A DNA stretch of 62,260 bases, filler included. It is 4 parts of 4 records of this genome, joined end to end, with 100 filler letters (N's around TTAATTAATTAA, not from the genome) between each part and the next. Parts side by side here need not be neighbours in the genome. Positions count along the whole stretch, not along the records: positions 17,059 to 40,678 come from DRR723986_6656; 3 more parts are not named here. One strand, written 5' to 3'. How positions within the stretch are numbered: position 1 is the stretch's first letter; every line of letters starts with the position of its first letter. The translations under genes and the position numbers were made by a program. Positions 17,059 through 32,600 of this stretch are shown piece by piece. The notes under the pieces were generated by a model. That model saw only the letters and a list, made by a program, of their open reading frames with translations. It was not told where the DNA came from and ran no database searches.

Positions 17059-17476
17059 CCTGCCGCTCTGCGTTCATGTCCGACAGGGCCGTGCGCGCCC
17101 TCTCCGCCTCGGCCTTATGAGACGCAGCCTCCGCCGCGAGACCCGCGACCTCCGCCTCCAGCGTCCGGCGCTCTGCTTTCGCCGCAGAGATTTCCGCAGC
17201 GATTGCCTGGCGATCCAGGACAAGGGTTCGGCGGGCTTCCTCCTCCGCCGCTGTCTCGCCGCGCACTTCCTCGAGCCGAAGCGCATAGCCTTCGCGGTCC
17301 CGGATCAAGGCGCCGAACTCCCGGTCCAGCTGACCTACGGCGTACCAGAGGACGCCAACGCCGATGATTGCCAGAACCGCCAAAACGGCGGCGACGACAG
17401 TGAATTTACTCGACTTCCGATAGGTCTTGTTCGACGAGGTCAAGACAGGCCTCCATATTGCTTGAAAGTTCATCAA
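17059..17476 (-). CDS. Membrane-anchored coiled-coil protein, truncated; start uncertain
   Basis: TM segment VVAAVLAVLAIIGVGVLWY followed by E/A/R-rich heptad sequence; overlaps helicase stop. Confidence 0.6.
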
Positions 17477-20400
17477 CCCAGAAGCGGCGCACGCGCCAAC
17501 CCAAGGACTTCATTTGGTGATCGCGCCACAGGTCTGCGCTCTTGCGCTTGCCCTCCGGCGTCTGGTGCCAACGGCGGCCATCGACCTCGAGGTCGAGCTT
17601 GATACCGCCCTCTCCAAAGAGCGCGAAATCCAGCCGCCGACCGGCCACGTCATATTGCGGCTGGGGATCAAGGCCCCGCGCGCGCAGCGCGTAGAAGACC
17701 TTCGCCTCCCATTCGCTGTCGAAGACACCTTCGCCGCGTTTTTTCCGCGGCTCCGTCGCATAGGACGCCAGCCGAGCCAGGCTCTGGACACGCCCCGATC
17801 TGGCAAAGGTCAGGTCGCCCATGACATGCGCGACGGCGCGTGCCCTCGAGATCGCCACGTTGAGCCGCCGCTTGTCCCGCTGCACGAAAGTGACCGCCGT
17901 GGTGGGGCTAGACGGGCCGAGCACGGGCGAGAACAGGATGAGGTCGCGCTCCTGCCCCTGGAACCCGTCCACCGTCGCCACGCGGAACTCCGCCTTCGCC
18001 AAGGCGGCTTCGGGGACCTTCGCCTGTACCGCGTCGAGGATCGCCTGCACCTGTCCACGGAATGGCGAGATTGCCCCGAAGCTGCCGTCGTAGCCCTGCT
18101 CGACCAACAGCCGATGCACTTCGCCCGCCACGGCTTCCGCTTCCGCCGCGTTCACGTTGTTCCGGCCGGGCACCAAGGGCGCAGGAACGTGCGTCCAGGC
18201 GAGGCCGGGTTTACCGCCGTCCGGCACCCGTGCACCGGGCGGCTGTGCGACGACCAGCGCACCGCCGTAGAAGGTATCGCTGATGTATTCCACGATTTCT
18301 CCGTCGGACCGGTACTGGTGACGCAGGGTGATCCTCGGCACATCGCGCACGCGGCTCACGCAGTCGAAGAGCGACCGTTTGCTTTGCGCCATCCCGCCCA
18401 TGCGGGACGGGTCGATCCCCTGCGCCAACATCAGGTTGCGATCCTGGGCGAGCCCCAGTTGAGGAATGAACGACAGCTGCCGGTCATCGCCGACGACGAC
18501 CGCCCGCTTTGCCCGGGCGAAGAGCGGCATGGCCGAGGCGATGTCGCATTGGCTCGCCTCGTCGAAGATCACCAGGTCGAACAGCCCCGCATCCAGCGGC
18601 ACGCGTTTGCCTGTGCCCAGCACGGATGCAAGCCATAGGGGACGATGGCGCAGGATGGCCCGCGACAGATCACCGGTCATCGGCTGACGGTCGCCGGAGA
18701 TCTCGCGGATATCCGCCAGCTCGGCGAGGGCCAGCCGGGCATCTTCCGTCGGCGCCACGACCTGCGCCATCAGCGGCGGCAGCAATCGAGCAGCTGCATC
18801 GGCCAGCCGATCGGACATCTCCAGCAAGTCCGGGACCTCCCCGATTCCGTCACGCTCGTCGCGCAGGGCTGCAAGTTCGTTTCGCAGCTCCGGGAGCGAC
18901 CGCGGACGGTCGGCATCGTCCTGCGGTGCACCACGTCCGAAAACCACCCTGCGCAGGAACGCCAAGATGCGGTCCCAAAGGCTCGTCGATCCAGCCGCTT
19001 GGGTGTTGTCGACCTGAGGCTCCGTACTGCCGTGCTTTTCTCGCCCCTCGATCCTGTCGAGCACCTCGGCGATCGCTATCTCCAGCGCCGCTCGCCTGTC
19101 GTGGCGCTCCAGACCATCGCTGCGTTGCCCGGCCAAGCGGAGCAGGTCTGCCAAGTCACCGGGGGTCACACCCCGCCCGCCTGCGCCACTGTCGCCATGG
19201 ACCAGCGCCTTGAGGACATCATCGAAGGACGTGTCGATCTCCCTCGCGGGGTCGAGCGTCCGGACGACGAAGGGCACACCCGGCGCCATGCTGCCCAGGC
19301 GGTGCTCCACCGCATCCAAGGCCTGATGGTTCTTCGACGCCACCAAGACCGATCCGCCGCGCATCAACACCGAGGCCGCCATGGAGACAATCGCCTGACT
19401 TTTACCGGTGCCCGGCGGCCCCTGCACGACACTGAGTGGTGCCGTGCAGGCGCGAGAGACCGCGACGAGTTGTTCCCGGTTCAACGGGCCGAGGTTCAAC
19501 GGCAGAAGCGAACGGTCTTCGCCAGTCCATTCCAGGCCGAGGACCGGCGCCAGTGCCGTCTGCGACAGCGCTTCGACAGGCCAGGTTGCGATCCGGTCGA
19601 GGTCTGCACTGGCGCGTGCCGTGAAGCTGCTTTCCCCGGGCAGGAAGATCGCCGCAGCATCGTGGATGCCCACCATGGAGGGGTCGAGACGCCCCGCCAG
19701 GAAATCCCCCGTCAAACGCCCACGGAAATGCCCGGCCGCCGCTTCGCGCAACCGCTGGACGAAGTCATCATGCGCCAGCGGCGCGCCTTCCTCGGTGGCA
19801 AAGATCTCTGGCAGCTCCGCCCGGCTCCAGCCCATGTCGCGCGCGGCTCCGGACAGCCAGTCCGGGTTCACCAGGACGTCCAGGTCCCCGATCGTCAGAA
19901 CCAGCCTGCCGTCCACCCGCTCCCAAGTCGCAGAGAACAGGCCAACCGGGCGGATGAGGGGCATCCCGGCCCTGCGTCCTACGGCCAATGGCCACCCTAC
20001 TGCCACCGCGTTGTCCTCGCCATCGCGGCGAAGCAGGGCTTGGCGGAATTCGGGCCCGAGCGCCTCAAGGTCGATGCTGATCGTCGTCGCTTGCCTGTCC
20101 ACATCGACCAAGGGGCCTTGCCCGGCAAACAGGTGCCAATCCACGCCATGCAGGTCAGGCCGGGTGGTCGTCCGTCCACGCGGATCGGACCGCAGCGCGG
20201 ACCGCCAGTAGCGGATCAGGGCCGCAGGTTCGATGTGCGACGTCTCGGTATGCACGCCTTCTTCGGCGTCGGTAGCGGGCTCGCCCGCAAGTCCTCGAAC
20301 GATCGCTGGCGCCGCCAGCATCTCCGCGTCGGTTACCGCGTCGGCGGCACCTGCGGGTTTGCCTTGACCAACCGTGGCAGACCGAACAACGACCTTTAAT

Positions 20401-20576
20401 GGCCGCCATTTGCCGTCCCGGCCCTTGATGACCCGACCGTCTGCCAACAGTCCGTCCAGCTCGGCAAGGATCGACAAGCGCCGATCCGTCTCGAAAGCCG
20501 CTCCGCACAGGACCATCAGCTCTTCGGTGGTGCGCCCCCTCGGAAACGCTTCGATCGTTCTGAAAACACTTTGCAT
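17406..20576 (-). CDS. SF1 (Upf1-like AAA_11/AAA_12) helicase fused to C-terminal DUF559/Vsr-like endonuclease
   Basis: QGPPGTGKS, FDEASQ, VGDDRQL, TVDGFQGQE, RLNVAISRAR; C-terminal FDSEWE...RLDFAL...LEVDGRRWH...RD...GWRVRRFW. Confidence 0.88.
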   Translation of the reverse strand: MQSVFRTIEAFPRGRTTEELMVLCGAAFETDRRLSILAELDGLLADGRVIKGRDGKWRPLKVVVRSATVGQGKPAGAADAVTDAEMLAAPAIVRGLAGEPATDAEEGVHTETSHIEPAALIRYWRSALRSDPRGRTTTRPDLHGVDWHLFAGQGPLVDVDRQATTISIDLEALGPEFRQALLRRDGEDNAVAVGWPLAVGRRAGMPLIRPVGLFSATWERVDGRLVLTIGDLDVLVNPDWLSGAARDMGWSRAELPEIFATEEGAPLAHDDFVQRLREAAAGHFRGRLTGDFLAGRLDPSMVGIHDAAAIFLPGESSFTARASADLDRIATWPVEALSQTALAPVLGLEWTGEDRSLLPLNLGPLNREQLVAVSRACTAPLSVVQGPPGTGKSQAIVSMAASVLMRGGSVLVASKNHQALDAVEHRLGSMAPGVPFVVRTLDPAREIDTSFDDVLKALVHGDSGAGGRGVTPGDLADLLRLAGQRSDGLERHDRRAALEIAIAEVLDRIEGREKHGSTEPQVDNTQAAGSTSLWDRILAFLRRVVFGRGAPQDDADRPRSLPELRNELAALRDERDGIGEVPDLLEMSDRLADAAARLLPPLMAQVVAPTEDARLALAELADIREISGDRQPMTGDLSRAILRHRPLWLASVLGTGKRVPLDAGLFDLVIFDEASQCDIASAMPLFARAKRAVVVGDDRQLSFIPQLGLAQDRNLMLAQGIDPSRMGGMAQSKRSLFDCVSRVRDVPRITLRHQYRSDGEIVEYISDTFYGGALVVAQPPGARVPDGGKPGLAWTHVPAPLVPGRNNVNAAEAEAVAGEVHRLLVEQGYDGSFGAISPFRGQVQAILDAVQAKVPEAALAKAEFRVATVDGFQGQERDLILFSPVLGPSSPTTAVTFVQRDKRRLNVAISRARAVAHVMGDLTFARSGRVQSLARLASYATEPRKKRGEGVFDSEWEAKVFYALRARGLDPQPQYDVAGRRLDFALFGEGGIKLDLEVDGRRWHQTPEGKRKSADLWRDHQMKSLGWRVRRFWVDELSSNMEACLDLVEQDLSEVE

Positions 20577-20590
20577 CGGGCCGTCTCAAA

Positions 20591-22579
20591 TCAATGCGGC
20601 GTCAGGTCGACGAGAAACTCGCTCAGCGGCTCCACGCCCGACAGCCAAAGATGATCCCGGGCACGGGTCGCGGCGACGTACAACAGGTGCCGCTCGGTCG
20701 CGAGGATCTCGTCCAGCTGCGCCTCGTCCTGCGCCAGAAGGACACGGTCCTGATCCGGAAGGACATCCTGATCCAAGGCGATTACCGCCACGGCGCGGAA
20801 TTCGGATCCCTTGGCTTCATGCATCGGCAACACCGAGCATCCGTCGGGAAATGCCCCGCGCAGGGCAGCGGCCATCTGCGGTTGGCGGACCAAGACGGCC
20901 ATCTGTTCCACGGGAACGCCGTCTTCCTGCACGCGCTTCAACCATAGCGCGGCCGCTTCGATTTCGGTTCTCCGGCTCGCAAAGGATCGGATCTCAGGTT
21001 GCGGCCCCTCGAAGACCGAAGTGATCCCGCTGCGGCTGTCCTCCGAACCGTCGGCCTCGACCAGTTTCTCAGGCAGGAGCTTGTCGCTTTGACGGCGGAT
21101 CTGATGAGAGGTCCGATAGTTGACCTTCAGGCTGCGCGACCGGCCCCGCAATTCGATCCCGGCCGCCGACCACGGGAACGGTGCCCGAAAGATGCGCTGC
21201 CCGATATCGCCGGCAAAGAACAAGCCGTTCGGGGCCTGCCCCAGAAGGTCACCCAGCAGCATGAGTTCTGCCACGGCGATGTCCTGCGCCTCGTCGACGA
21301 CGACATGCGTGTACGGCAGGTGGCCCGACGCACGCAGCGCATGGGCCATGCCCGATTGGGTGATGAGCCCTTCAGCCGCCAATGCTTCACGGACATCCGC
21401 GAAGACCGACCAGAGCGCCTCGCGGCGAGACGCGGCCAGCCGCAGCTTGCGGCCGAGGCGTGGCAGGTCACGATACCGATCGGCGTCCCGGATGTCCCAA
21501 GCGTCGATCACGAGCGACCACTCGTCCCACAGGAAGTCCGGATCGAGAGACACCCCATGCCGTGCCGCCGTTTCTGCCAGCAACCCGCGCACATGGTCGT
21601 CGCTGGCCAGCCGAGGGGGCTCCACGGTCTGCGCGTAAAGGTCCTTGACCTTCTCGGCCAAGGCCGCCACTTCGATCCGCGCCACGATGGCGTGCTCTGC
21701 CAATAGAGGCAACTTTGCCGCCAATCGCGCGGCGAGCGTCTTGTTGAATGTCGTCAGCAGCACCCGCGCCTGCGGATCGCGCGCCATACGGATCGCCCGG
21801 TGCAAGGCGACCACCGTCTTGCCCGTGCCTGCCGACCCGATCACCCGCGCCGGGCCGTTGAAATCGCGGCCCACATACTCCCGTTGCGCCGGGTGCAAGT
21901 AGACCGACCATTTCTCCCAAGGCGCGTCCAGCGCCGCGCGCAGCTCGGCGAGGTTTTCCATGGTGCGGAACCGGCGGCCCGCATCCGGATGCGCGAAGGG
22001 GTCGCCGCCCTGCTGCACCGGGGCCACTTCCGGGCGCACGCCTGTTGCTGCCTGCAACACCGCTTCCCCGGCCTCGGACGGCAGCCGCCCCGCGATATCC
22101 AGCACCGTATCCTCGGTTGCCTGCCGCACGGTGTCGAGCCAATCCTCCGGCACGCCCCAGGACAAGAGCGTCTCGTCGCTCTCGCCCTCGAACAGCCGCG
22201 GCATCCGGATCGCTTCCTGCACATAGTGCTGGATCGTGATTTCCTCGACTGTCTCGCGGATCTCGACGATCTGCGCGGCACCGGTGCGCGGATGGGTGTC
22301 GATCCGCCGCGTCTCTGCCCATCTGTAGGCCGCGTCATGGTGGGCGACATAGGCCAGCAGCGTCGCGCCCTCCTGCTTGTGCAGCACCATGCGGATGTCG
22401 CGGTTCACCCGCGCGGTCCAGAAATGCGGATCGCGCGCTTGGTCGACCCGGTGCATCTTGAACCCGGGATTGTCCGGGTTCATCTGCACGTCGAAGGCCG
22501 CGGTCTTGACCGCCTTCTGTTCCTGCGCGGTGAGTTTCGACAAGCTGTCGGAGAAGGTGTCGGCGATGCGGAAGGTCAT
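20591..22579 (-). CDS. UvrD-like SF1 helicase with N-terminal RelE-like domain
   Basis: GSAGTGKT, VVDEAQD, NYRT, KGSEF, YVAATRAR; N-terminal TFSDSLSKL...WTARVNRDIRMV. Confidence 0.85.
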   Translation of the reverse strand: MTFRIADTFSDSLSKLTAQEQKAVKTAAFDVQMNPDNPGFKMHRVDQARDPHFWTARVNRDIRMVLHKQEGATLLAYVAHHDAAYRWAETRRIDTHPRTGAAQIVEIRETVEEITIQHYVQEAIRMPRLFEGESDETLLSWGVPEDWLDTVRQATEDTVLDIAGRLPSEAGEAVLQAATGVRPEVAPVQQGGDPFAHPDAGRRFRTMENLAELRAALDAPWEKWSVYLHPAQREYVGRDFNGPARVIGSAGTGKTVVALHRAIRMARDPQARVLLTTFNKTLAARLAAKLPLLAEHAIVARIEVAALAEKVKDLYAQTVEPPRLASDDHVRGLLAETAARHGVSLDPDFLWDEWSLVIDAWDIRDADRYRDLPRLGRKLRLAASRREALWSVFADVREALAAEGLITQSGMAHALRASGHLPYTHVVVDEAQDIAVAELMLLGDLLGQAPNGLFFAGDIGQRIFRAPFPWSAAGIELRGRSRSLKVNYRTSHQIRRQSDKLLPEKLVEADGSEDSRSGITSVFEGPQPEIRSFASRRTEIEAAALWLKRVQEDGVPVEQMAVLVRQPQMAAALRGAFPDGCSVLPMHEAKGSEFRAVAVIALDQDVLPDQDRVLLAQDEAQLDEILATERHLLYVAATRARDHLWLSGVEPLSEFLVDLTPH

Positions 22580-22797
22580 TTCTCGACGACGTATTGAGCC
22601 AAGTTCATGCCTTTTCGGACTTCCGTCTGATAGCTTGCAGGCAAGCCGGCCTCTTCCACAATCTCCAAGATCGGGGCACCTTCCAAAGCGGCAACATATC
22701 TGATCCCAAACAAATGAATGGACACGGCCTTCCCAGTTGAAGGGTCATCGTACATTTCGCGCAAAGCGCTCGCCAATTCCTTAATCTTCATCGTCAA
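22576..22797 (-). CDS. Small HTH-like protein
   Basis: IHLFGIRY...AGLPASYQTEVRKGMNLAQYV; 4-nt overlaps with both neighbours; lower GC than flanks. Confidence 0.7.
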   Translation of the reverse strand: MTMKIKELASALREMYDDPSTGKAVSIHLFGIRYVAALEGAPILEIVEEAGLPASYQTEVRKGMNLAQYVVEK

Positions 22798-24350
22798 ACC
22801 CCCATCACCTTCATCACTTCATCCCCAAGGTGGTTGATCACCTTCACCGCGATCCGCCCCGACTTCGGCCTCGCGAACTTGCGCGACACCGTGCGCTTAA
22901 GCGATTCCCAGGCCTCCTCGTCCACTTCCCCCTTCAACGTCGTCTTCAGCTGTTTGTACGGGATCTCCGCCCCCGGGAAATACGCGTGGCGGACGAAGAA
23001 CGACTCCTCGTTGTAGTCCGTGTCGATGAACCAACAGGCGATGTCGTCCGGCTCCGAGGACACCACCTCCCCCGTCGCGGGTTTGAAGATGTCGACGCCT
23101 TTCAGCTCGACCCGCAACCCATCGCCGTCTTCCGTCACCACGATGTCCGGCTCGCCGAACACGACGAACAGGTTGCCGCCCCCGGCCTTCAAATCCCCAG
23201 ACATATGCAGGTCCGGGTTCATCCGGGCGTGCAGCACGCGGACGCGGCCCAGCTTGTGGAACTCGGAAACATGCGCGTCGAAGTTGAAGGCGCAGGCGAT
23301 CAGGATGTCGAAGCCCCCGTCGGCGGCCTCGCGCGCGGCGGCCACCAAATCCGCACGCTGCACCGTGCCGTATTCCGGGCCGACGAAGATCGCGGCCCGG
23401 CGTTCCTCCTCGCCCTCCATGTAGCGCCCCTCGGCGATGACGTAGTCGCCACCATAGCCGGGCGTCAGCGCGGTGAAGTCGATCTTGTCCGCCTTGTCGG
23501 ACTGCTGCACCCCGGCCTTCCCGAGGTTCTCGAGGATCGCGGTCACGTAGTTCTCGCGCTCCTGCGCATCGCGGGAGCGGACCCCCGAGGCCGCGTCGAC
23601 CTCCTCGATCAGCTCGCCGTATTCGTTCACCGCCTGCGTGCGGTGGGGCGAGAGGCTCTCGACGGTGAACGGCCCCGCGACGCGGACGCGCTTCTTGTCC
23701 TCGTAGGGCTTGTCGTAGAGGTACTCGTAATCCGCCTTGGCGGCGATGGAGGCGTCGATCTCCCTTTGCCGGGCGATGCGGGCGGTCCAAAAGGCGTCCA
23801 GAGCCTTGGTCGCGGCCTCGGGCCAGCCGTCCGGTGCCTCGCGCGGGACTTCCCATTCCATCAGCCCGCCTGCGGGGGCGGGTTCGCCGCTGGGCAGGCT
23901 CACCTCGCCACTGGCGGTGAAGTCGATCTTTTCGCCCTTGCGGCCGCCGGTTTCCACGGTGAAGGGCGTGGTGTGACCGGACAGCGCCGCGTTGAGGTCG
24001 GCCAGGGCATCCTCGACTGCGGGGTGCAGGTCGGCCCAGATCTGGTCGATCTCGGTGTTGTCGGCGATGGACTTCAGCGTGATATGCGGCACGCGGTTGT
24101 AGACGAAGCCGTGGCGGATGTCGTTGTAGGTCGGCGTGGTGGCGGGGGCGGAGCGGGTGACCTCGGCCTCCTTGCGCTGGCCGTCTTCGCTGTCGGCCAG
24201 CAGGTACCAGGGGTATTTCGCCCCCATGATCCGCGCGCGTGCCAAGGCGAGGGCCACGCGGGAGGTGTCGATGGTGATCCAGCGCCGCCCCCATTGCTCG
24301 GCGACGTAAGCCGTGGTGCCGGAGCCGCAGGTGAGGTCAATCGCCGACAT
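22794..24350 (-). CDS. Type III-like DNA methyltransferase (Mod), C-terminal half starting at motif I
   Basis: MSAI-DLTCGSGTTAYVAEQWGRRWITIDTS (SAM-binding motif I) plus long Mod C-terminal region ending IAVKVINHLGDEVMKV. Confidence 0.85.
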   Translation of the reverse strand: MSAIDLTCGSGTTAYVAEQWGRRWITIDTSRVALALARARIMGAKYPWYLLADSEDGQRKEAEVTRSAPATTPTYNDIRHGFVYNRVPHITLKSIADNTEIDQIWADLHPAVEDALADLNAALSGHTTPFTVETGGRKGEKIDFTASGEVSLPSGEPAPAGGLMEWEVPREAPDGWPEAATKALDAFWTARIARQREIDASIAAKADYEYLYDKPYEDKKRVRVAGPFTVESLSPHRTQAVNEYGELIEEVDAASGVRSRDAQERENYVTAILENLGKAGVQQSDKADKIDFTALTPGYGGDYVIAEGRYMEGEEERRAAIFVGPEYGTVQRADLVAAAREAADGGFDILIACAFNFDAHVSEFHKLGRVRVLHARMNPDLHMSGDLKAGGGNLFVVFGEPDIVVTEDGDGLRVELKGVDIFKPATGEVVSSEPDDIACWFIDTDYNEESFFVRHAYFPGAEIPYKQLKTTLKGEVDEEAWESLKRTVSRKFARPKSGRIAVKVINHLGDEVMKVMGV

Positions 24351-25281
24351 ATCGGTTCTCGCGATGCCACGATAGGAATTCTTCGGAAGCCGCCCATTCC
24401 GGGTTCACAGGCAAACGCATCTCCTTTCCATGAAGCCGACGATACTCATGGCCGTTGTTAAAGATCACCTTGACCTGAGGAGAAACGACGAAGCGGCGTC
24501 TCTCATCAAACGTCGCGAATCCGGCGTCGAAAACGCTGTGAATGTCCTTGCGAAGAAGGATACCATTCTGGATAGCGTGACTGCCACCCTGAGAAAATGG
24601 TTTGATGTGGGCCGCTTCAAGCGCGGGAGTAACGCGCGTTTCTGATAGAACGCACTCATTCTGATAGGCGCGAGCTACGTTTATCCTAAATGTACCCTGA
24701 CCGATGCGCGGCTTCACTGGAATCGGGCTACCATAGCCTGCCTGAGGTTCCGCCGACAGTCCGGGAAATGTATGACGTGGCGCAATCGCCTCCGAAAAGC
24801 CTCCGGCACGCTCTTCCAAATCCTGAAGAAGCTTCTGACCCACGACTGTCTCGGTAGAATAGGTCTTGCCTTGAACTATATTACCGGACCAATCCGATGG
24901 GGGAGAAAACCACAACTCTTCGGGAAAAAAGACATGATGGACCAAGACACGGACGCCGATGAAGGAATATTGATTGACATCAGGTGACTTGCGGATTGTG
25001 CGGATTTTCTGAACGAATGTACTCAGATCCGGCACGCCGTTGCCTTCGCCGAACGCTTCCCATGTCATGTTGATCTGCGCGTCGGCACTCGTCGTCAGCA
25101 CTCCGAAACCGCCGATTTTATTGTAGGGCGCTTTCAGCTTGAAGGCAAATATGCCCCCCTCGCCGACAGCCTTGAACGTCTGCGGCGTCGGCTTCCAAAA
25201 ATTGATTTCGGGAAGCTGCGGACGCTGTCTTAGATAGTCGAACCATTCCGTATCGGTCACTGCACAGAAAACATCCCTCAT
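24337..25281 (-). CDS. HNH endonuclease inserted inside mod
   Basis: CVLS...LEAAHIKP...NGILLRKDIHSVFDAG (HNH_2); N-terminal AVTDTEWF...INFW...FAFKLKAP domain; AT-richer than flanks; likely ATG at 25281. Confidence 0.88.
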   Translation of the reverse strand: MRDVFCAVTDTEWFDYLRQRPQLPEINFWKPTPQTFKAVGEGGIFAFKLKAPYNKIGGFGVLTTSADAQINMTWEAFGEGNGVPDLSTFVQKIRTIRKSPDVNQYSFIGVRVLVHHVFFPEELWFSPPSDWSGNIVQGKTYSTETVVGQKLLQDLEERAGGFSEAIAPRHTFPGLSAEPQAGYGSPIPVKPRIGQGTFRINVARAYQNECVLSETRVTPALEAAHIKPFSQGGSHAIQNGILLRKDIHSVFDAGFATFDERRRFVVSPQVKVIFNNGHEYRRLHGKEMRLPVNPEWAASEEFLSWHRENRYVGD

Positions 25282-25282
25282 C

Positions 25283-25804
25283 TCAATACCCTGCACTGAT
25301 GCCATAGGGCGGGTCGATGTAGATCGCCTGCACCTGGCCTTTCAGCCCTTCGCGTTCCGCGAGGCTCGCCATGACCTGCAAGCCGTCACCGAGGATCATC
25401 CGGTTCGACCACTTGCGGTGGTGGCGGTAGAACTCGATCTCCGCCTCGTGGTCCTCGTCCGACAGGCCGAAGTGATCGAACAGGTCCACCCCCGCGCCTT
25501 CGCCGTTGCGGGCATTGCCGCGGCGCAGGTCCTCGATGATGGCCTTGGGGTGCACCTGCTCCTGCAGGTAGATCGGCGGCGCGTCGACGGTGACAGCGGC
25601 CGCGTCGATATCCTTGCCGCGCCAGATCAGCTGCGGATCGAGGTCCGGGCTACGCTGTTCATAGGCCACCATGATCGGCTTGGCATCCTCCGGGTCCATC
25701 ATCGGCGCCAGTTCCGGCGTGGGAATGTTCACGCGCTCCTCGGCATGGGTGATTGGGTCGATGCGGGTGCTTGCCTGCGGGGAGGCGGAGGGTTTGTCGG
25801 TCAT
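25283..25804 (-). CDS. Type III-like DNA methyltransferase (Mod), N-terminal half ending just after motif IV
   Basis: DPQLIWRGKD, WSNRMILGDGLQVMASL...IYIDPPYGI followed by SAGY-stop. Confidence 0.85.
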   Translation of the reverse strand: MTDKPSASPQASTRIDPITHAEERVNIPTPELAPMMDPEDAKPIMVAYEQRSPDLDPQLIWRGKDIDAAAVTVDAPPIYLQEQVHPKAIIEDLRRGNARNGEGAGVDLFDHFGLSDEDHEAEIEFYRHHRKWSNRMILGDGLQVMASLAEREGLKGQVQAIYIDPPYGISAGY

Positions 25805-25807
25805 TGG

Positions 25808-26119
25808 TCAGCCCAGAAAAAGAAAGATGACAATCAGCAGCGGCAGGATCGTTACAGCAAAGCTTACGGCGGCGGGCACCACGATTGCGATGAATTGGGA
25901 CAAGGCTGCGAGGATGATAAAAGTGTCGCGCAAGCCGCGCCCGATCTGCGGCAGCGCGGCATTCGCCGCCGCCCTGACATGCAGAAAGGTGTCCACGACC
26001 CGGGACATGCCACTGGCCAGACGGGCGCGGCGACGGTCGCCGCCTTCGGTCAGGGCCCGGCGCAGGTCGTATTCCGCCGTCAGGTCAGGGTCGTTGAGAT
26101 GCGAAGGGTCGGGTCTCAT
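25808..26119 (-). CDS. Small hypothetical membrane protein
   Basis: ATGA overlap with res stop; hydrophobic C-terminal half (about two TM helices). Confidence 0.55.
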   Translation of the reverse strand: MRPDPSHLNDPDLTAEYDLRRALTEGGDRRRARLASGMSRVVDTFLHVRAAANAALPQIGRGLRDTFIILAALSQFIAIVVPAAVSFAVTILPLLIVIFLFLG

Positions 26120-29100
26120 GCCGGGATCTTTCCGAGCATGTCGTCGATCGCCCGATCCAGGTCCGGGCCGAAGTCGTGCACCGCGCGCAGCTCGGCAAAG
26201 CCCCAGCGGCCAAAGCGTTTGAGGGAGTTGACCCCGGGGACCCACTTGGTCTGCATCGCGGTGGCCTTGAGCATGGCGTCATGGTCGCGCATGCCCTTCA
26301 CCTCGACCACAAGCGTCGTCGGTTCCGGCGCGTCGAGCCGCAGCAGGAAATCCGGGCGGTACATGTGCTGTTCGCCGTCCTTGAGGTAGGGCACTTCGAA
26401 GCCGAGGTTGTGGTTCTTGGCATAGGCGAGGACGGCGGGGTGCTGCTCTATCTTCGCGGCCAGCTTGTCCTCCCAACCGCTGTCCGTGACGATCCAGTTC
26501 ACGTGGGATTTCAGCGGGCTGGCGGCGTAGCGCGTCGCCTTCGAGGTGGTGAAGTTGACGTCCATGGTGGATCCCATGGGTGTGTAGGGATCGAGGACGG
26601 CGCGGATGACGCTGTCGCCCCGTGGCTTGTCGATGAGCGCGCCGAGGATGATGTCGCAGACCTCGTCGGTCAACTGGCGGTAGAGGAGCTGCGCCTCTAT
26701 CGTGCCGCCCTTGAGGACGAGATGCCCTTCGTTCAGCCACTGGTTCGCGAGGCGCTTGGCTGCCGGGAAGAGGTGCATCTTCGGCTGGTCATTCGCGTCG
26801 CGCAGCTTGTCGAAGACCATGTGCTTGGCGATATGCGTGGCGATCGTAGAGCGGCGCTGCGACTTCAGATAGTCGAGCGTCAGCAGTTCCTCGGCGCCCA
26901 CGATGCCTTGCATGGTGACTTCGGTGGCGTGGACCTTCTCCGGTGTGAGGACGTATTGCTCGAGGCCGGAAAAATCTGCTTCCAGCCGGTCGGGCGGGAT
27001 GTCGGCGACATAGCCCTGCACGCGCGGGAAGGTGATTTCCAAGTGGTCCCGCTGTGGCGAAACGGCGTGGACGGCGATCACGTCGCGCGGCTTCTGTGGC
27101 GGGGCTGTGCGCGGCTGGTCGGAGAAGTTCAGCCCGTCGATGCCCATGATATCGGCGTACTCGGTGGCGAAGTGGCCGGTTTCCGGGTCGATTTCGTAGG
27201 ACAGTCGACGCAGGGCGCGTCCGATCACCTGTTCGCAGATCAGTTGCGTGCCAAAGGCCCGCAGGCCGAGAATGTGGGTGACGTTGTTGGCGTCCCATCC
27301 TTCGGTGAGCATCGAGACGGAGACGACGCAGCGCACCTGTTCGCCCAGTTTGCCCTTGCGCCCGACGGTGTTCATGACCTCGCGCAGGATGTCGCCGTCC
27401 GTCAGGCCCTCGGCGCCCATGCCACGCTCGGCCTGCTCTCGACGGAAGGCCTCGATTTCCTCCGCATGGGCATCGCGGAACGACTTGTCGATGTCGCCGC
27501 CCGCCTCCAACGTCGCGCTGTCGATCAGCACCGTGCGCGGGCGCGGCAGGCGATCATCGTCCGAGGAAAAGTTCGAGAACAGCGGGCAATGGCCCTTTCG
27601 GACCTCGATCATGCCGTTCGCATCCTCGATCTCGTAGCCCGCCATGTAGTCGCGCAGCAACTCCGAGTTCGTCGTGTTGTTGCAGACCACGATGAAGACC
27701 GGCGGGATACCGACCTTCTCGGCCTCCCAGAGCTTGAAGGTCTTCTCGTAGTGACCATAGAGCGCGTCGATGGCGGTCTTCAGTTCCAGCGGCAGCTTCT
27801 GCGGATCCAGCCGGGTCTCGCCGCGCGCCTTCTTCGGCATCTTCTTCCCGATGGCCTTCCAGAGGTTGCGATACAGCGGCGCCGGTTGTCCCGGCATGTT
27901 GTCCGCCACCGGAACGCGCGGCAGCTTGACGATGCCGCATTCGATCGCGTCCATCAGCGAGAAGTCCGAGACCACCCAGGGAAACAGCGTACCCTCCTGC
28001 CAGCCGGAGCCGGACAGGAAGAACGGTGTCGCCGAAAGGTCATAGACCGTACGCACCTTCAGCTTGCGCTTGGCGGCCTCGAGGCCAGAAATCCACAACC
28101 GGGCCGCCTCTCGGTTTTCCTCGGCCTCCTTGCGCTCGTCGCCGGTCAGCTTTGGCGCGTTCGGATCTTCGCGCTCGCGGTAACAGTGATGTGCCTCGTC
28201 GTTGATGACGGTGATGGCCCCGGCCCCCATGAGTTCCGGCATGACGCGTTGCAGCATCTGGCCTTCGCTTTCCAGCGTCTTCACCTCGTCGCCATGACCT
28301 TCGAGCGCGGCACGCGTGCCCTTTGCCAGGCTGACCCGCTCCCGCAGCTTGAAGGCATGGTAATTCGTCAGCACGATCCGGGCGCGGTTCATGTCCTGCA
28401 GCATGTCCTGCGGCACGAGGTTGCGGGTCCGGTAGTAGCTGTCCGCATCGTTGGGCAGCAGGACGCGCAACCGGTCCTTGATGGTGATGCCCGGGGTCAC
28501 GATCAGGAACCCGGTACCGAAGGCCTTGGAATTCGGGCTGCGCACGGCATTCAGGACCTGCCAGGCGATCAGCATCGCCATGACAGTCGTCTTGCCGGCG
28601 CCGGTCGCCAGCTTCATGGCGATGCGGAAGAGTTCAGGGTTTGCCTCGGCATTTGCTGCTTCGAGACGCGCCTGGAACCGCTGGCCACGGGCCTTGTTCT
28701 TCGGCGCAACCTCGGCCAGCCAGATGGCGGTTTCGACTGCCTCCAACTGGCAGAAGAAAGGGCGAATCCGCTGAGCCGGGTCCTTCTGGATCGCGCGCCA
28801 GTGCTGCAGCAGGCGTTGCGTCACCGGGCTGACCTGCCATTGAGCCGGGTTGGGCAGGCTGCGCCAGGTTTCCACCTCGCGCCGGATCTCGTTCACCGTT
28901 TCGGTCGGGTTGTATTCGAAAGCCTGCCCCGTCAGCCGCCCGGTGCTGAGATCCATGCTTTCCTGGGCCGCACCCGCCGTCTTGCTCTTGGCCTGCGGCA
29001 TTGCAGAGATCAGATCCGAACGCCTGCGCCTTTCGAGAACCGTATCGGTGGGATGGCCGCCCTTGGCCATTTCCCAATGCCGATCGGGTGCGAAATATGG

Positions 29101-29133
29101 GGAGTTGAGAATTGGATCGTCGAAAAAACTCAT
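26116..29133 (-). CDS. res: Type III-like restriction subunit (SF2 helicase + PD-(D/E)xK; BPTD_3080-like family)
   Basis: MSFFDDPILNSPY, LATGAGKT, NDEAHHCY, MLTEGWD, YRPDF...VEVKG. Confidence 0.9.
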   Translation of the reverse strand: MSFFDDPILNSPYFAPDRHWEMAKGGHPTDTVLERRRRSDLISAMPQAKSKTAGAAQESMDLSTGRLTGQAFEYNPTETVNEIRREVETWRSLPNPAQWQVSPVTQRLLQHWRAIQKDPAQRIRPFFCQLEAVETAIWLAEVAPKNKARGQRFQARLEAANAEANPELFRIAMKLATGAGKTTVMAMLIAWQVLNAVRSPNSKAFGTGFLIVTPGITIKDRLRVLLPNDADSYYRTRNLVPQDMLQDMNRARIVLTNYHAFKLRERVSLAKGTRAALEGHGDEVKTLESEGQMLQRVMPELMGAGAITVINDEAHHCYREREDPNAPKLTGDERKEAEENREAARLWISGLEAAKRKLKVRTVYDLSATPFFLSGSGWQEGTLFPWVVSDFSLMDAIECGIVKLPRVPVADNMPGQPAPLYRNLWKAIGKKMPKKARGETRLDPQKLPLELKTAIDALYGHYEKTFKLWEAEKVGIPPVFIVVCNNTTNSELLRDYMAGYEIEDANGMIEVRKGHCPLFSNFSSDDDRLPRPRTVLIDSATLEAGGDIDKSFRDAHAEEIEAFRREQAERGMGAEGLTDGDILREVMNTVGRKGKLGEQVRCVVSVSMLTEGWDANNVTHILGLRAFGTQLICEQVIGRALRRLSYEIDPETGHFATEYADIMGIDGLNFSDQPRTAPPQKPRDVIAVHAVSPQRDHLEITFPRVQGYVADIPPDRLEADFSGLEQYVLTPEKVHATEVTMQGIVGAEELLTLDYLKSQRRSTIATHIAKHMVFDKLRDANDQPKMHLFPAAKRLANQWLNEGHLVLKGGTIEAQLLYRQLTDEVCDIILGALIDKPRGDSVIRAVLDPYTPMGSTMDVNFTTSKATRYAASPLKSHVNWIVTDSGWEDKLAAKIEQHPAVLAYAKNHNLGFEVPYLKDGEQHMYRPDFLLRLDAPEPTTLVVEVKGMRDHDAMLKATAMQTKWVPGVNSLKRFGRWGFAELRAVHDFGPDLDRAIDDMLGKIPA

Positions 29134-29254
29134 GTTTGCCCTCAATATCGCGAAGTATACCAGCATCGACCATTCGTCACGGTGTAGCCGCCGGGGCCAC
29201 CCGATCATTCTTCGACTGGTTAGACAACCGTTCCTGACGCAGTTCAATCCAAAG

Positions 29255-29648: not shown

Positions 29649-32600
29649 ATGACAGAAGCAATACGACCCTTGAACGCCTTGGAACACATTTCCAAAAAAC
29701 TGAATCTTGAGTTGCACCTTGGTGCGCCCTTGCATTCCTACCGGATCTCCGACGCGCATTACACCTACCTCGAGCATTTTATCCGTGATGCCGTGCAATA
29801 CCGGCGTCTTGACAGCTGTGCGGCCATATTCGTCCTGTGGGCCGCCGAACGGTTCAGGCGCGAATATGCGGGCGGCGGCTATTCGTGGGAGTTCCTGACC
29901 GAACCGCTCCGCTTGGGAAAGAACTATGCCGAACTGCATCATCTGACCCGACGCGGGCTGAGAGAGTTCGGGCGCACCATTCGCCAAAGCGAGGAAGGGA
30001 CCACCTTCTACCTGATGACGCTGGCGGCGGAAGGCGGCTTTCCCGAAGCGCTGCTAGCCGCCCCGGACGGCCAGGCTCGGCGCGCCGTTCGCGGCATCAT
30101 GGCCGACATCGACAAGGTCGGGCGCGCGGCTCCGGTCGAGATCCTCGATCAGATCGTGGCGGACCGGGTCCGTGTCCTGAGCAAGGGGTTTCAGACGCGG
30201 GAATACCGCGACCTCCTTCGCGCCTTCTGTCTGGACATCATGACCCTGCGCGCAAGGATCCCCGAGACGATCCCGGTCGATGCAAGGCGGGACTGGCTCG
30301 ATGCCAATGAACCGGGATGGCAGGTTGCACTCCCCTTGCGGATCGAGTCAGCCGCAGCGCAGAGCCTTCTGAGCGATGTCGTGCGCGCCGAGAGCGGCGC
30401 CGGGACCGAGTCCCTGGCGGACCGTGTGTTGGTCCGGATCGACGATGCTTGGATACCCAAGGTGCGCATCGCGCGGGCCGCCGAGGTCCCCGAATGGCAA
30501 CTGCAAATCGGCGACACCCGGCTGCGGTCGATCCGCATCCTTCCCGATACCGACTTGGCCGGCTACGCGCCCGGCCTGGTGCTCTCGGCGGATCGCAGCC
30601 CGGATGCCAAGCTGTGGGACGTCCAGCGTGACAGCGCGGAACGCCGTGCGGAATTCGCGATGCCACTCAATCGGCCGGTCACCTTTCGGCTCATGGCGGA
30701 AGGGGTGCAAGTCGGATCGCACACGCCTTTGGGTGGCGAAGCGATCGACCCCGACGACCTGCCGACGCTGTGGGCGGGTGACGGGTCCGCCACAGGCGGA
30801 TCACCGCAAACCCTGCGTCGCCTCGGGTCGGGTGCGATTCGAACGCGGGCACCTCACGTCTGGGTCCTGCCGGGAAACGAGGGGGCCAGGTTCGACGGGC
30901 TTGACGCCGACGTCGATGGCACGGTGAACGGCAGTCCGCTGTACCGCGTGACGGGCCAAGGGCGCATCTTCGGTTCGGGCTGGAGCATGAAGGTCGTGAC
31001 GGCCAGTGACGAAGAGAGCAGCGACCGCCTGATTGCCTATGGGCCAATGGTGCCGGGAGTGCGCGACGCCCAGCGCATGGGGTTTCACCAAGGTGTGCCG
31101 CAGTTCCATGGCCACTGCGTCGACGGCGTGATCCGTGCCCTGTCGCCGAAAGATCTGCGCTGGCGTGCCACGGGACAAACCGCGTGGAAAAACGGCGTGC
31201 CACCGGAGGACGCCTGCCTTGGCCTCATCCAGTTCTGCTGGCGCGATGCAGAGGGCGCTGCGCGGGCCTTTACCTCCTGTCGCGTCATGCCGAAAGCGGC
31301 GCGCCTCGCCCTGTCGGAAACCGGGCCAGGCAAGATCGCCTTCCGCGTCTCGGGCATGCCGAGTGGGGTGACGGTTTCGCTGGGAGATGGCCGGGCCGCC
31401 CGCGTGAGCGACAGCGGGTCCGCGACCCTGCCGATTGTCGAAAACGTCGCGACGATGGGACGCGTCTCGGTGCATCTGCGTCCCTCCGAGGGCGCAGGCC
31501 GCCCTTTCGATGTCAGCCTGCAACGCCCGGGCGACCAAGGATGGTTCGCCGATGGTCAGGACAAGCTTCTGCAACGCGATATCGACCTCGACCTCGGCAT
31601 GCTGGCTGGCTGGCGCGTGCTGGCACCAACGGACCGCGAGGTGCATCTTCAGATCCGCCTGTTCGGGGACCATACGCCGGAACACCCGCTGGTCCTCACC
31701 GTCAGCAACGAGACCGCGCTAAGCGCGCTCCTGCCCCGGTTCCGTGGGCTCATGGCGGTTGGCGGGCCTGACAGCCGCCTGCATCTTCGAGTGCTCGTTG
31801 GCCCGACGCCAAGCCCGCGCATAACCCTGCGTCGGCATCTGCGAGAAGGGGACTGGCAGGGCGACACCTTTGTTCTCAGGACGCACGGCGGGATGGCGTC
31901 TGCGGAAAACCTGCCGGCCAAGGTCATCAACCTCAGCGCCCCAAGCCTTGTGCATCACTTCGATGCGCTGCCGATCGGGGAAGCCTTCTTTGACCATCTG
32001 CCCGAGCATCCCGGGCCATGGATGGTCTTTGCACGCGGCGACATGGGTCTGGTCCGACCGCCGAGGCCCCGGGCCAAACAGGTCGAGAATGCGCTTTCCG
32101 CGGCCCGCTTCTCCGACGACTTTCTTGCCTGTTCCAACGCGCGGACCCGGGACGGCAGGCTTGCCGCCTTCGGCAGGGAACTCGCCGAGTTGCTTTCCCC
32201 GATGCGGCAAGGCGACCTTGGGCTGTTCGAGCAACAACTCGAGGACCTTGGTGCCGACGAGACGCTGTGCAGCCTCGATTCCGTCGTGGCCCTAGATCGC
32301 GCCCCGGCGCTTGCCGCGCTGCTCTTGCTGCGCGCGACCAAGGAACAGCTGTCGGCCCGGATCGACCTCGAGAGCATCAGCCCGTTCTCATTGACGACGC
32401 TCCCATTGAGCAGCTGGAAACAGGCAATCCAGGCTCGAACCCGGCAGCTCGAAACGGCGATGGTCGCGGCCGGGCTCCCCCGAGACTCGGCGGTCCCATA
32501 CGCCCATGACGCGGTCGCCTCGAGCCTGCGCGCGATCCGCGACCGCCGCCCGGAACTCATCGGCCAATTGGTGCTGGCCGCCCTCGAGACCGGCACGTTC

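Follow-up and report, generated by a model that had tools for sequence, protein, structure and literature searches.

A predicted PUA-HNH nuclease gene in place of the methylase core of a Type III-like res-mod operon

In a bacterial restriction-modification operon, we found that the catalytic and target-recognition core of the DNA methylase gene (mod) has been replaced by a complete gene for an HNH nuclease, which has the architecture of enzymes that cut modified DNA. The same kind of replacement was evident at eight other loci, which suggests that one locus may alternate between two opposite modes of defence. The operon lies on the minus strand of the window, i.e., the whole 62,260-nt stretch of DNA that was analysed, and comprises a res gene, a 5' mod fragment (Mod-N), the HNH gene, a 3' mod fragment (Mod-C), an HTH_73 gene and a UvrD-like helicase gene. 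An earlier note, made from the sequence alone, had described this layout, and our analysis confirms that observation. The interpretation offered there, namely that the route of target-recognition domain (TRD) exchange delivered a nuclease gene and thereby generated a possibly repurposed defence system, is only partly supported.

Anatomy of the operon

We first mapped the open reading frames (ORFs) on the minus strand. The res ORF spans 26116–29247 and starts at a TTG, but the likely start is the ATG at 29133 (MSFFDD...), where homologues begin to align (residues 35–41). Its product belongs to the BPTD_3080 family of SF2 helicase-nucleases, scoring 1208.5 bits on NCBIfam NF046055 (cut-off 800; residues 43–1033, profile positions 2–969 of 970) and 34.4 bits on ResIII (cut-off 22.5), with 1 of 220 family-invariant columns changed. 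A 311-nt spacer (25805–26115) separates res from Mod-N, whereas relatives carry here an ORF6N or NYN gene, or almost nothing. Mod-N (25283–25804, 173 aa) ends in IYIDPPYGI followed by SAGY and a stop; bases 25298–25804 correspond to Mod residues 1–162 up to motif IV (DPPYGI), bases 25286–25297 are four new codons (SAGY), and the TGA is at 25283–25285. The HNH ORF was listed at 24337–25305, but homologues, 314 aa long (about 305–316 aa across 792 homologues), align from its ninth residue. The real HNH start is therefore the ATG at 25281, one base after the Mod-N stop, as the earlier note had proposed, rendering a gene at 24337–25281 (314 aa) with its TGA at 24339–24337. Mod-C (22794–24350, 518 aa) begins MSAID-L-TCGSGTT from a new ATG (24350) that overlaps the HNH 3' end by 14 nt, and continues with Mod residues 449–965, that is, motifs I–III and the long family-specific C-terminal region. 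Downstream, the HTH_73 small protein gene (22576–22797; PF24718, E 2.5e-25) overlaps the Mod-C stop by 4 nt, and the UvrD-like helicase gene (20591–22579) overlaps the HTH_73 stop by 4 nt. There is no stop or frameshift in Mod-N, HNH, Mod-C or Res.

To delimit the loss, we aligned both Mod fragments with the full-length homologues from two relative loci, L003 (965 aa) and L002 (951 aa). In L003 numbering, which is used hereafter, Mod-N covers residues 1–162 and Mod-C residues 449–965, so residues 163–448 (286 aa) are absent. The Pfam N6_N4_Mtase domain (PF01555) spans residues 151–483 of L003, and thus 86% of it is gone, including the variable target-recognition part. The missing core was not found elsewhere in the window (best tblastn E 0.84). 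Both fragments match PADLOC PDLC03632, MTase_III (Mod-N, positions 77–199, E 1.2e-41; Mod-C, E 1.3e-194). However, Mod-C scores only 17.9 bits on the Pfam domain (cut-off 26.7) and Mod-N has no Pfam hit, while intact L003 scores 110.5 bits. Motif IV (DPPY), invariant among 61 intact homologues, is kept at the end of Mod-N, and motifs I–III (TCGSGTT...RRWITIDTS) are kept at the start of Mod-C, although the invariant Pro preceding motif I is changed to Leu. What is lacking is the continuous catalytic domain, with motifs V–VIII, the TRD and motif X between motifs IV and I. The locus therefore cannot methylate, as the earlier note had anticipated.

The junctions were further assessed with contigs of relatives from four metagenome runs. 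These stop matching the window at 25297 and at 24332–24338, and run on into sequence that, translated by eye, reads as intact Mod (FNSNFQWS... and ...TDPGDLVLD). The inserted segment (24339–25296, about 958 nt, GC 0.53) holds 16 nt of leader and the whole HNH gene, with nothing after its stop codon. GC content is 0.52–0.55 over about 24300–25350 against 0.64–0.70 on both sides, and GC3 is 0.58 for HNH against 0.88 for Mod-N, 0.91 for Mod-C and 0.85 for Res. We found neither direct or inverted flanking repeats nor a target-site duplication. A search of public runs returned none holding this sequence (best share of words 0.12), and no read support for the two junctions could be obtained; nevertheless, the independent contig L081 has the same HNH-to-motif I junction, which argues against a chimeric assembly.

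The inserted gene encodes a predicted PUA-HNH protein

The C-terminal part of the HNH protein (about residues 190–314) matches the HNH_2 nuclease family (PF13391, 39.8 bits, cut-off 21). The His-Asn-His residues typical of catalysis are conserved among 60 sequences, with N239 invariant and H225 and H248 at least 90% conserved. In an AlphaFold2 model (pLDDT 87.7), residues 1–160 form a predicted ASCH-like PUA-superfamily domain, connected to the nuclease by a disordered linker (167–187). Foldseek retrieved VcaM4I (E 1.2e-9), ZmASCH (E 3e-4) and TagI (E 4e-4), and VIA-align yielded Z scores of 14.0 for TagI, 13.2 for VcaM4I and 12.3 for ZmASCH over model residues 1–160 (the latter with rmsd 3.0 and 137 residues aligned). 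This is the two-domain build of modification-dependent, Type IV enzymes such as VcaM4I (EVE-HNH), TagI (SRA-HNH) and ScoA3V (PUA-like-HNH), but the reader domain is closest to ASCH rather than to EVE or SRA, and sequence identity to the solved enzymes is 15–19%. On the other hand, the match to phosphorothioate-dependent endonucleases (NCBIfam NF045808) reached only 65.3 bits against a cut-off of 180 and was confined to the HNH part (profile positions 163–281), without the sulphur-binding domain. Comparison of the window with L081 gave dN 0.187 with synonymous sites saturated (pS 0.88, 312 codons). The HNH gene is thus intact and under purifying selection.

The replacement recurs in eight other loci

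We next examined the surroundings of HNH homologues. Mod remnants lie downstream of 8 of 92 HNH-homologue loci and upstream of 4 of 97. The eight loci, from independent assemblies, carry a homologous HNH (39–77% identical) beside remnants of the same Mod family, whereas the other 84 of 92 have no Mod remnant downstream, and five sampled ones lie among unrelated genes. This agrees with the report that PUA-HNH enzymes are modification dependent and rarely lie next to methylase genes (PMC6765204). The earlier note had set a singleton layout as a condition that would refute its reading, and this condition fails. The junctions form a nested series (left 143–240, right 449–886), with left/right borders at 162/449 in the window, undetermined/450 in L081, 167/476 in L083, 197/535 in L125, about 143/668 in L097, none/about 565–611 in L082, 240/769 in L181 and none/about 883 in L180, whereas L086 retains only a scar at 460–472. 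A one-off illegitimate insertion or an assembly chimera, i.e., an accidental pseudogene with no wider pattern, is contradicted by this recurrence, by the right junction shared with L081 and by the homology breaks in contigs of relatives. We regard it as very unlikely, despite the lack of read support and of insertion footprints.

Nor does the locus conform to a gene in pieces made by a free-standing homing endonuclease, as in phage Aeh1 nrdA split by mobE. In both cases an HNH-family gene sits inside a host gene, leaving two translated halves, but homing insertions keep all of the host gene, lie at one fixed site, and the halves reassemble into an active enzyme. Here, 286 residues are missing, the junctions differ among the nine loci, and the HNH protein has a predicted modified-base reader domain.

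HNH-bearing operons are interspersed with intact ones

To learn how the HNH gene reached this position, we compared intact relatives. Their central Mod segment (251–425) is only 29–32% identical, between flanks that are 82–98% identical, and the least eroded junctions (left 240 in L181, right 449 in the window) sit at its borders. The claim in the earlier note that the segment was precisely replaced needs qualifying, since in the window about 88 conserved residues (163–250) left of the variable segment are lost as well. On the Res tree, all 6 HNH-bearing rows lie in a 14-row set (support 100) together with 8 intact rows, at least 3 changes are needed, and the AU test rejects a single HNH-bearing clade (p 2.7e-34). 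The Mod-C tree is likewise polyphyletic. Although the L081 HNH is the sister of that of the window (SH-aLRT 99) and the right junction is the same, the L081 Mod-C is 89.6% identical in nucleotides to the intact L002 allele but 82.1% to the window (119 codons). These data support the idea, put forward in the earlier note, that the route used for TRD exchange also carries the nuclease gene. Type III mod alleles, such as modA of Neisseria and Haemophilus, exchange their recognition domains (PMC3311624, PMC1557822), and these too show a hypervariable centre between conserved flanks and alleles interspersed in the phylogeny of the flanks. In our case, however, the exchanged piece is a whole gene of another enzyme class with its own start and stop, which ends methylation altogether and splits mod into two ORFs.

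Decay and conservation of the Mod and Res remnants

We then asked whether the remnants are decaying or maintained. The L083 Mod-C has one in-frame stop, and L086 has a stop inside its HNH and only a 13-residue Mod scar. L180 keeps 83–96 residues of Mod next to a leuB-like gene, with no res match in the 1.4 kb upstream on its 5,179-nt contig. Eroded loci also show more changes at invariant Mod-C columns (about 5 in L125, 4 of about 55 in L097 and about 5 of 35 in L180) than 44 intact sequences (0–4 of about 149). In the window itself, the motif I–III remnant of Mod-C (residues 1–51) is predicted unfolded (pLDDT 25–36).

Other findings point in the opposite direction. The window's halves show no relaxation: pairwise dN/dS is 0.11–0.34 against 0.07–0.40 among intact pairs, and only 0 of 24 invariant columns of Mod-N and 2 of 149 of Mod-C are changed (P6L at the junction and W299Y). 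This is also expected if the flanks are young or refreshed by recombination with intact alleles. L181 keeps all 33 invariant columns of segment 163–240, for which no use is apparent. Res has no stop in any of the six HNH-bearing operons (655–1006 aligned residues each), including L082, where Mod-N is gone, the Res stop overlaps the HNH start and the Res branch is long (1.23); a useless 3-kb gene should have broken there. Further, every remnant Mod-C has acquired a start codon at or within about 25 nt of the HNH stop (window, L082, L083, L097, L125 and L181), which looks like maintained translational coupling. The last 83 or more residues of Mod are kept in 7 of the 8 other instances, the exception being L086, whose contig ends 186 nt after HNH. 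A homologous UvrD-like helicase follows mod in intact L003 and is kept in HNH-bearing L125 and L181.

These latter observations would fit an integrated, methylase-less system, in which Res (motor-nuclease), the Mod end-pieces and the PUA-HNH protein work together as a new modification-dependent or abortive defence complex, the Mod pieces serving as scaffolds that tie Res to the new sensor-nuclease. The data do not show such a repurposed system, and we consider it rather unlikely. The many HNH homologues without Mod indicate that the nuclease does not need Res or Mod, L180 and the stop in L083 speak against it, and the amount of Mod retained differs from locus to locus (Mod-C from 449 to 886, Mod-N from 240 to none), as decay rather than a fixed scaffold predicts.

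An allelic switch as the most likely explanation

Collectively, these data lead us to favor, with only moderate confidence, that this is an allelic form of a Type III-like res-mod operon in which a free-standing gene for a PUA(ASCH-like)-HNH nuclease replaces the mod core. The analysis itself establishes the loss of Mod residues 163–448 and hence of methylation, the integrity of and purifying selection on the HNH gene, the recurrence of the same nesting in eight other loci with nested junctions, and the interspersion of HNH-bearing and intact operons in the Res and Mod-C trees. The remainder is inference. In this view, an HNH gene once replaced the variable segment (about residues 241–448), although a single origin is not resolved against several independent captures, the flanked state needing 4 or more changes on the HNH tree. 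The cassette would most likely be passed between mod alleles by homologous recombination in the conserved flanking motifs; after each transfer the methylase remnants would erode from the junctions outward, and the HNH gene would sometimes end up alone. Dependence of cleavage on a modified base is likewise inferred from architecture alone. The HNH protein would act on its own, as its many solitary relatives must, so that the locus would switch from methylating self and cutting unmodified DNA to cutting modified DNA. Destroying mod would be tolerated because a Type III Res needs Mod to act, and may be required if the nuclease attacks DNA methylated by this Mod. The Mod halves in the window would be fresh remnants, and a function for them is not needed to explain the data.

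Antagonism between Type IV enzymes and methylases has precedents, since acquisition of Mrr drives loss of Type III Mod function (PMC3152355). In the pairs Mrr and StyLTI Mod, PcaRCII and PcaRCI, and McrBC and incoming methylases, a nuclease and a methylase that should not co-exist are reconciled by loss or silencing of one partner (PMC3152355, PMC8989522, PMC2993543). There, the two genes lie apart and resolution is by mutation or promoter methylation, whereas here the nuclease gene physically takes the place of the methylase core. A conflict is, however, inferred and not shown; a general m6A reader would clash with CcrM in Alphaproteobacteria, which leaves this motive unproven. We found no description of this arrangement in full-text searches, which did not extend to the supplementary tables of PMC6765204, which list the rare PUA-nuclease genes near methylases and may include similar cases.

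Restriction-modification and modification-dependent restriction are usually treated as separate, mutually hostile systems at different loci. A Type IV-like nuclease gene repeatedly occupying the slot of the variable core of a Type III-like methylase gives a concrete genetic mechanism by which a lineage can flip its defence logic in one recombination step and remove the methylase-nuclease conflict at the same time. It shows that the conserved motif-coding flanks of mod genes can carry cargo other than recognition domains, offers a natural series of progressively trimmed Mod proteins with Res kept intact that bears on which parts of Mod a Type III-like Res really needs, and gives annotators a reason not to dismiss split mod genes next to HNH genes as plain pseudogenes. 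A bolder possibility, which we deem unlikely although not excluded, is that the HNH-bearing operons are a working, methylase-less descendant of a Type III system, either because Res and the Mod end-pieces have been recruited to a modified-DNA sensor-nuclease or because the cassette is a selfish allele that eliminates the intact methylase allele and spreads through the mod family by the recombination route normally used for recognition-domain exchange. Either way, one chromosomal locus would toggle between cutting unmodified and cutting modified DNA by swapping a single cassette.

Base composition and frequency of the HNH-bearing allele

In the selfish variant, the HNH protein would cut DNA methylated by the intact Mod, so that when the cassette enters a cell with an intact allele only recombinants that replace the methylase core survive. 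The nuclease would thereby drive its own spread through this mod family, in a homing-like behaviour based on modification and not on a target sequence. The repeated association of one HNH family with one Mod family, with at least 3 gains or losses on the Res tree, the almost complete absence of non-coding flank in the cassette and the Mrr precedent are in line with this hypothesis, as is the low GC3 of HNH relative to its flanks in all 8 loci measured (0.37–0.69 against 0.79–0.96). However, low GC relative to the flanks is a property of the whole HNH family, solitary members included (58 of 78 with a difference above 0.05), and the junctions are not at one fixed site. The HNH allele is also rare, occurring in 1 of 18 genomes with a close Mod homologue in a sample of 401, and in 0 of the 80 best GTDB loci. 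In the absence of data on specificity, we therefore regard this hypothesis as improbable. Mod genes of this family are often broken in other ways, which would fit an accidental pseudogene: of those 80 GTDB loci, 61 have an open Mod frame of 850 aa or more, 11 are cut by contig ends, 7 show frameshifts or stops (L001, L014, L019, L024, L036, L042 and L066), and 1 (L016) carries a transposase.

A methylase gene split around an HNH gene

Six ORFs lie head to tail on the minus strand of the window, namely res (26116-29247, with a likely start at 29133, where homologues begin to align), Mod-N (25283-25804), an HNH ORF (24337-25305), Mod-C (22794-24350), an HTH_73 gene (22576-22797), and a UvrD-like helicase gene (20591-22579), the last three pairs overlapping by 14, 4, and 4 nt, respectively. 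HNH homologues are about 305-316 aa long and align from the ninth residue of the listed ORF; the HNH start is therefore the ATG at 25281, one base after the Mod-N stop. To map the missing part, we aligned both Mod halves with two full-length homologues from related operons, L003 (965 aa) and L002 (951 aa). Mod-N equals residues 1-162 and ends at IYIDPPYGI, whereas Mod-C equals residues 449-965 and begins at (D)-L-TCGSGTT, so that residues 163-448 are missing. As the Pfam methylase domain spans residues 151-483 in L003, 86% of it is gone, and nothing like the missing core was found elsewhere in the window. An apparent Mod similarity upstream of motif I, inside the HNH 3' end (tblastn from residue 426), proved to be an over-extension through a stop and not homology.

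Contigs of relatives from four metagenome runs further delimited the insert. These stop matching at 25297 and at 24332-24338 and continue into sequence that we read by eye as intact Mod, which fixes the inserted segment in the assembled window at about 24339-25296. The four runs contained only relatives with intact Mod, and the HNH part remained without coverage except for one short piece in X1. No public run contains the stretch itself (17 runs with some share, none of them RNA; best share of words 0.12), and a search of a plasmid collection yielded only three short, weak matches. The inserted segment has a GC content of 0.53 and a GC3 of 0.58, against GC3 values of 0.88, 0.91, and 0.85 for Mod-N, Mod-C, and Res, respectively. 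No direct or inverted repeats or target duplications mark its ends beyond chance-like matches of 10-20 nt. A promoter and terminator scan was uninformative, with 1 promoter-like site (1.5 expected) and 5 terminator-like sites (7.2 expected).

Components of the operon and their surroundings

Res is a full-length member of NCBIfam NF046055, 'BPTD_3080 family restriction endonuclease' (1208.5 bits, cut-off 800). The Mod halves match the 983-position Type III methylase model PDLC03632 of PADLOC, Mod-N covering positions 77-199 and the best stretch of Mod-C positions 616-981 (E 1.3e-194, two stretches). Structure prediction of Mod-C rendered a mediocre model (pLDDT 67.9, pTM 0.36), for which Foldseek returned no match with E at or below 0.001. 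A complex prediction of Mod-C with the HNH protein, run without controls, gave a score of 0.00 and speaks neither for nor against an interaction.

The HNH protein carries Pfam HNH_2 with conserved catalytic His/Asn/His. A confident AlphaFold2 model (pLDDT 87.7) resembles the EVE-HNH enzyme VcaM4I over its whole length (Foldseek E 1.2e-9), the HNH part of TagI (Z 14.0) and, for residues 1-160, ASCH domains (Z 12.3). It is thus predicted to be a PUA-superfamily reader fused to an HNH nuclease, which is the build of modification-dependent restriction enzymes (PMC6765204, PMC7897488); a dependence on modified DNA is inferred here from this architecture alone.

The window sits in a defence island. 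A Druantia type III-like pair (29649-38980, plus strand) lies next to res in divergent orientation, comprising a DruH/YjiT-family protein (29649-32942; PADLOC DruH3 E 1.7e-69 and NCBIfam NF038336) and a 2013-aa DruE3 helicase (32939-38980; 1980 bits). Directly downstream of the UvrD-like gene, a 1056-aa SF1 helicase (AAA_11/AAA_12) with a C-terminal MTES_1575/DUF559 nuclease domain (17406-20576, minus strand) gives partial matches to the Hhe, ProA, Mko, and PDC-S37 defence proteins. Farther away (4259-10835, minus strand), a 1199-aa UvrD/GajB-like helicase (4259-7858) is preceded by a 1015-aa ORF with no PADLOC match, and the 1558-aa ORF at 46203-50879 has none either.

The HNH gene recurs beside Mod remnants

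The operon res-(variable small gene)-mod-(HTH)-UvrD-like is widespread; a scan of one genome per species gave at least 596 confirmed Mod-C relatives. None of the 80 best loci has an HNH gene between the Mod-N and Mod-C matches, although one of them, L014, has a weak HNH-like hit 5 kb away on the other strand. We searched with the HNH protein metagenome contigs (131 relatives, 80 kept) and two samples of 401 genomes each (2 and 14 genomes with a hit), and screened every locus with the Mod and Res proteins. Mod remnants lie directly downstream of 8 of 92 HNH homologues and upstream of 4 of 97. These counts come from a census that covered only the best 80 of at least 596 Mod loci and 98 HNH loci. 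In a sample of 401 genomes of the family of the closest relatives, 29 carry the Mod C-terminal region, 18 of them closely related, and only one (G218) has the HNH allele.

In L003 numbering, Mod breaks off at residue 162 and resumes at 449 in the window, where all ORFs are open. The eight other loci are the following. L081 (HNH 77% identical to that of the window) resumes at 450, its left end being unseen because only 56 nt lie upstream. L083 (48-49%) has ends at 167 and 476, with one stop in Mod-C. L082 (52%) has no Mod-N, the Res stop overlapping the HNH start, and resumes at about 565-611. L097 (49%) has ends at about 143 and 668, and L125 (45%) at 197 and 535. L086 (49%) has no left part and retains only a scar at 460-472 together with a stop inside HNH. 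L181, from genome G218 (42%), has ends at 240 and 769, with Res upstream and a UvrD-like gene downstream. Finally, L180, from genome G545 (39%), has no left part, resumes at about 883, and lies beside a leuB-like gene with no res match on the contig. The HNH gene of L086 (314-1231) and that of L107 are near-identical metagenome copies sharing the in-frame stop (between GSIM and GKTY), and the 13-residue scar downstream in L086 derives from Mod motif I.

The other HNH homologues have no Mod remnant, and five sampled ones sit among unrelated genes (oxidoreductase/peroxidase/amidohydrolase, DarT-macro, NOV_C, an Xre-type antitoxin). Proteins beginning with MTTDPGD in the 50% library (P0139 and others) could be further split Mods or contig-edge calls and were left aside, while the truncated Mod frames in genomes G152 and G340 are contig ends. 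In a Nodosilinea contig (L008:1-140), Mod homology also starts exactly at motif I (PLSCGSGTT), right after a stop codon, and the 107 nt upstream, up to the contig end, resemble neither Mod nor the HNH C-terminus, which may reflect other cargo at the same junction. In Streptomyces coelicolor, the 6mA-stimulated PUA-like-HNH enzyme ScoA3V is Sco5330, and a predicted adenine methylase that leaves no 6mA in the genome is Sco5331 (PMC6765204). Their locus numbers suggest that the two are neighbours and may be a similar nuclease-beside-dead-methylase pair, although the control genomes examined here gave no such hit.

Histories of the HNH and operon genes differ

All junction pairs fit one ancestral replacement of about residues 241-448, followed by erosion outward. 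In intact relatives that interval is the hypervariable one, with residues 251-425 being 29-32% identical among L001, L002, and L003, while residues 163-250 and 449-560 are 90-98% identical. On the HNH tree (84 rows) the window, L081, L082, and L083 form a clade (SH-aLRT 99), L097 and L086 fall in its sister group, and L125 is more basal. The flanked state needs 4 changes on this tree, in which L162, a flanked locus among the most distant rows, was not counted as flanked.

The operon genes tell a different story. On the Res tree (54 rows) the six HNH-bearing operons all lie in a 14-row subfamily (support 100) together with eight intact ones, where they occupy at least three separate places. Forcing them into one clade, a group that we named after seeing the tree, costs 619 log-likelihood units (AU p 2.7e-34), and the Mod-C tree agrees. 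Res and Mod of the window are 77-83% identical to those of intact operons of Paracoccaceae and Roseobacteraceae, but only 52-69% identical to those of L083, L097, and L125. Over 119 codons next to the shared junction, Mod-C of L081 is 89.6% identical in nucleotides (dS 0.24) to intact L002, and 82.1% identical (dS 0.63) to the window. Dating HNH against Mod-C from dS for the window and L081 was precluded by saturation of HNH and by the very high GC3 of Mod-C, which caps its pS. The simplest reading is that the cassette, or equivalently its flanks, is exchanged between alleles by homologous recombination in the conserved motif-coding DNA, which is the process known for recognition domains of Type III mod genes (PMC3311624, PMC1557822). 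Nonetheless, several independent captures cannot be excluded.

Evidence for conservation and for decay of the Mod halves

We next asked whether the halves are likely functional. Mod-N and Mod-C of the window give dN/dS of 0.11-0.34 against intact relatives, in the range of intact pairs (0.07-0.40), and three-taxon arithmetic on these values puts the window's own branch at about 0.21, L002 and L003 coming out at about 0.19-0.20 for Mod-C. Mod-N keeps 24 of 24 family-invariant columns and Mod-C 147 of 149, whereas 44 intact sequences lose 0-4. Res is open in all six operons, and every Mod-C remnant has a start codon at the HNH stop. These observations favour retained function and an integrated system in which Res, the Mod pieces, and the HNH protein would work together.

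Other data point to decay. The retained amount of Mod differs in every locus, L083 has a nonsense codon, L086 is a wreck, and L180 has lost the rest of the operon. Eroded loci lose more invariant positions in Mod-C and in Res, the latter amounting to 5 of 220 in L125, 8 of 163 in L097, and 9 of 150 in L082, against a median of 1 and a maximum of 7 in intact sequences. The motif I-III remnant is predicted to be unfolded, and the similarity of L081 Mod-C to intact L002 shows that flanks can be young, so their conservation need not reflect selection after the swap. We also looked for shared signature changes in Res. An Asp that is invariant in 48 intact Res proteins (window residue 495 counted from the ATG at 29133) is Lys or Glu in four of the five non-window HNH-bearing operons, which belong to two separate clades (L083, L181, L097, and L125), and is kept in the window and in L082. 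However, a wider count gave only 4 such columns against 0-60 in five control quartets, and this change was thus dropped as evidence.

The HNH gene itself is clearly maintained (dN 0.187 with saturated synonymous sites). Its low GC relative to the flanks holds in all 8 nested loci measured but also in 58 of 78 solitary relatives, so it marks a mobile family and not one recent event.

Collectively, these data establish that the arrangement is real, that it is not a singleton (a singleton layout with relaxed selection on the Mod halves being one of the conditions that the earlier note had set against its own reading), and that HNH-bearing operons are interspersed with intact ones; the route of exchange, the fate of the Mod halves, and the activity of the nuclease are inferred. 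We found no description of the arrangement in the papers that we could search. More likely than not, it is an allelic cassette in which a stand-alone Type IV-like nuclease gene has taken the place of the methylase core and travels by the recognition-domain exchange route, the Mod halves being fresh remnants. A truly integrated Res/Mod-piece/HNH system is possible but unlikely on present evidence, and a selfish cassette that kills the intact mod allele is more doubtful still. The observation of the earlier note, a mod gene with its central segment replaced by an HNH gene and both halves kept, therefore held. Its interpretation is only partly supported, as the data favour the proposed recognition-domain exchange route, whereas a repurposed defence system remains a possibility.

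Other variation in the Mod family

Mod genes of this family often carry frameshifts or in-frame stops with no cargo, as found in 7 of the 80 best GTDB loci (L001, L014, L019, L024, L036, L042, and L066) and, as a frameshift, in genome G109 (L190), which could be real inactivation, phase variation, or assembly errors in MAGs. In a Vicinamibacterales genome (L016:1096-5797), Mod is cut at about residue 386 by a DDE transposase gene (DUF772 + DDE_Tnp_1), a GmrSD Type IV enzyme gene lies just upstream on the other strand, and no Mod-N or res was found within 6 kb. The slot between res and mod is also variable, as it holds an ORF6N-domain gene in L002 (3704-4693) and L125 (3343-4182), a NYN-domain gene in L083 (2108-2830), a 349-aa ORF without assignment in L003 (3320-4369), about 40 nt in two further loci (L006 and L007), and 311 nt without a gene in the window.
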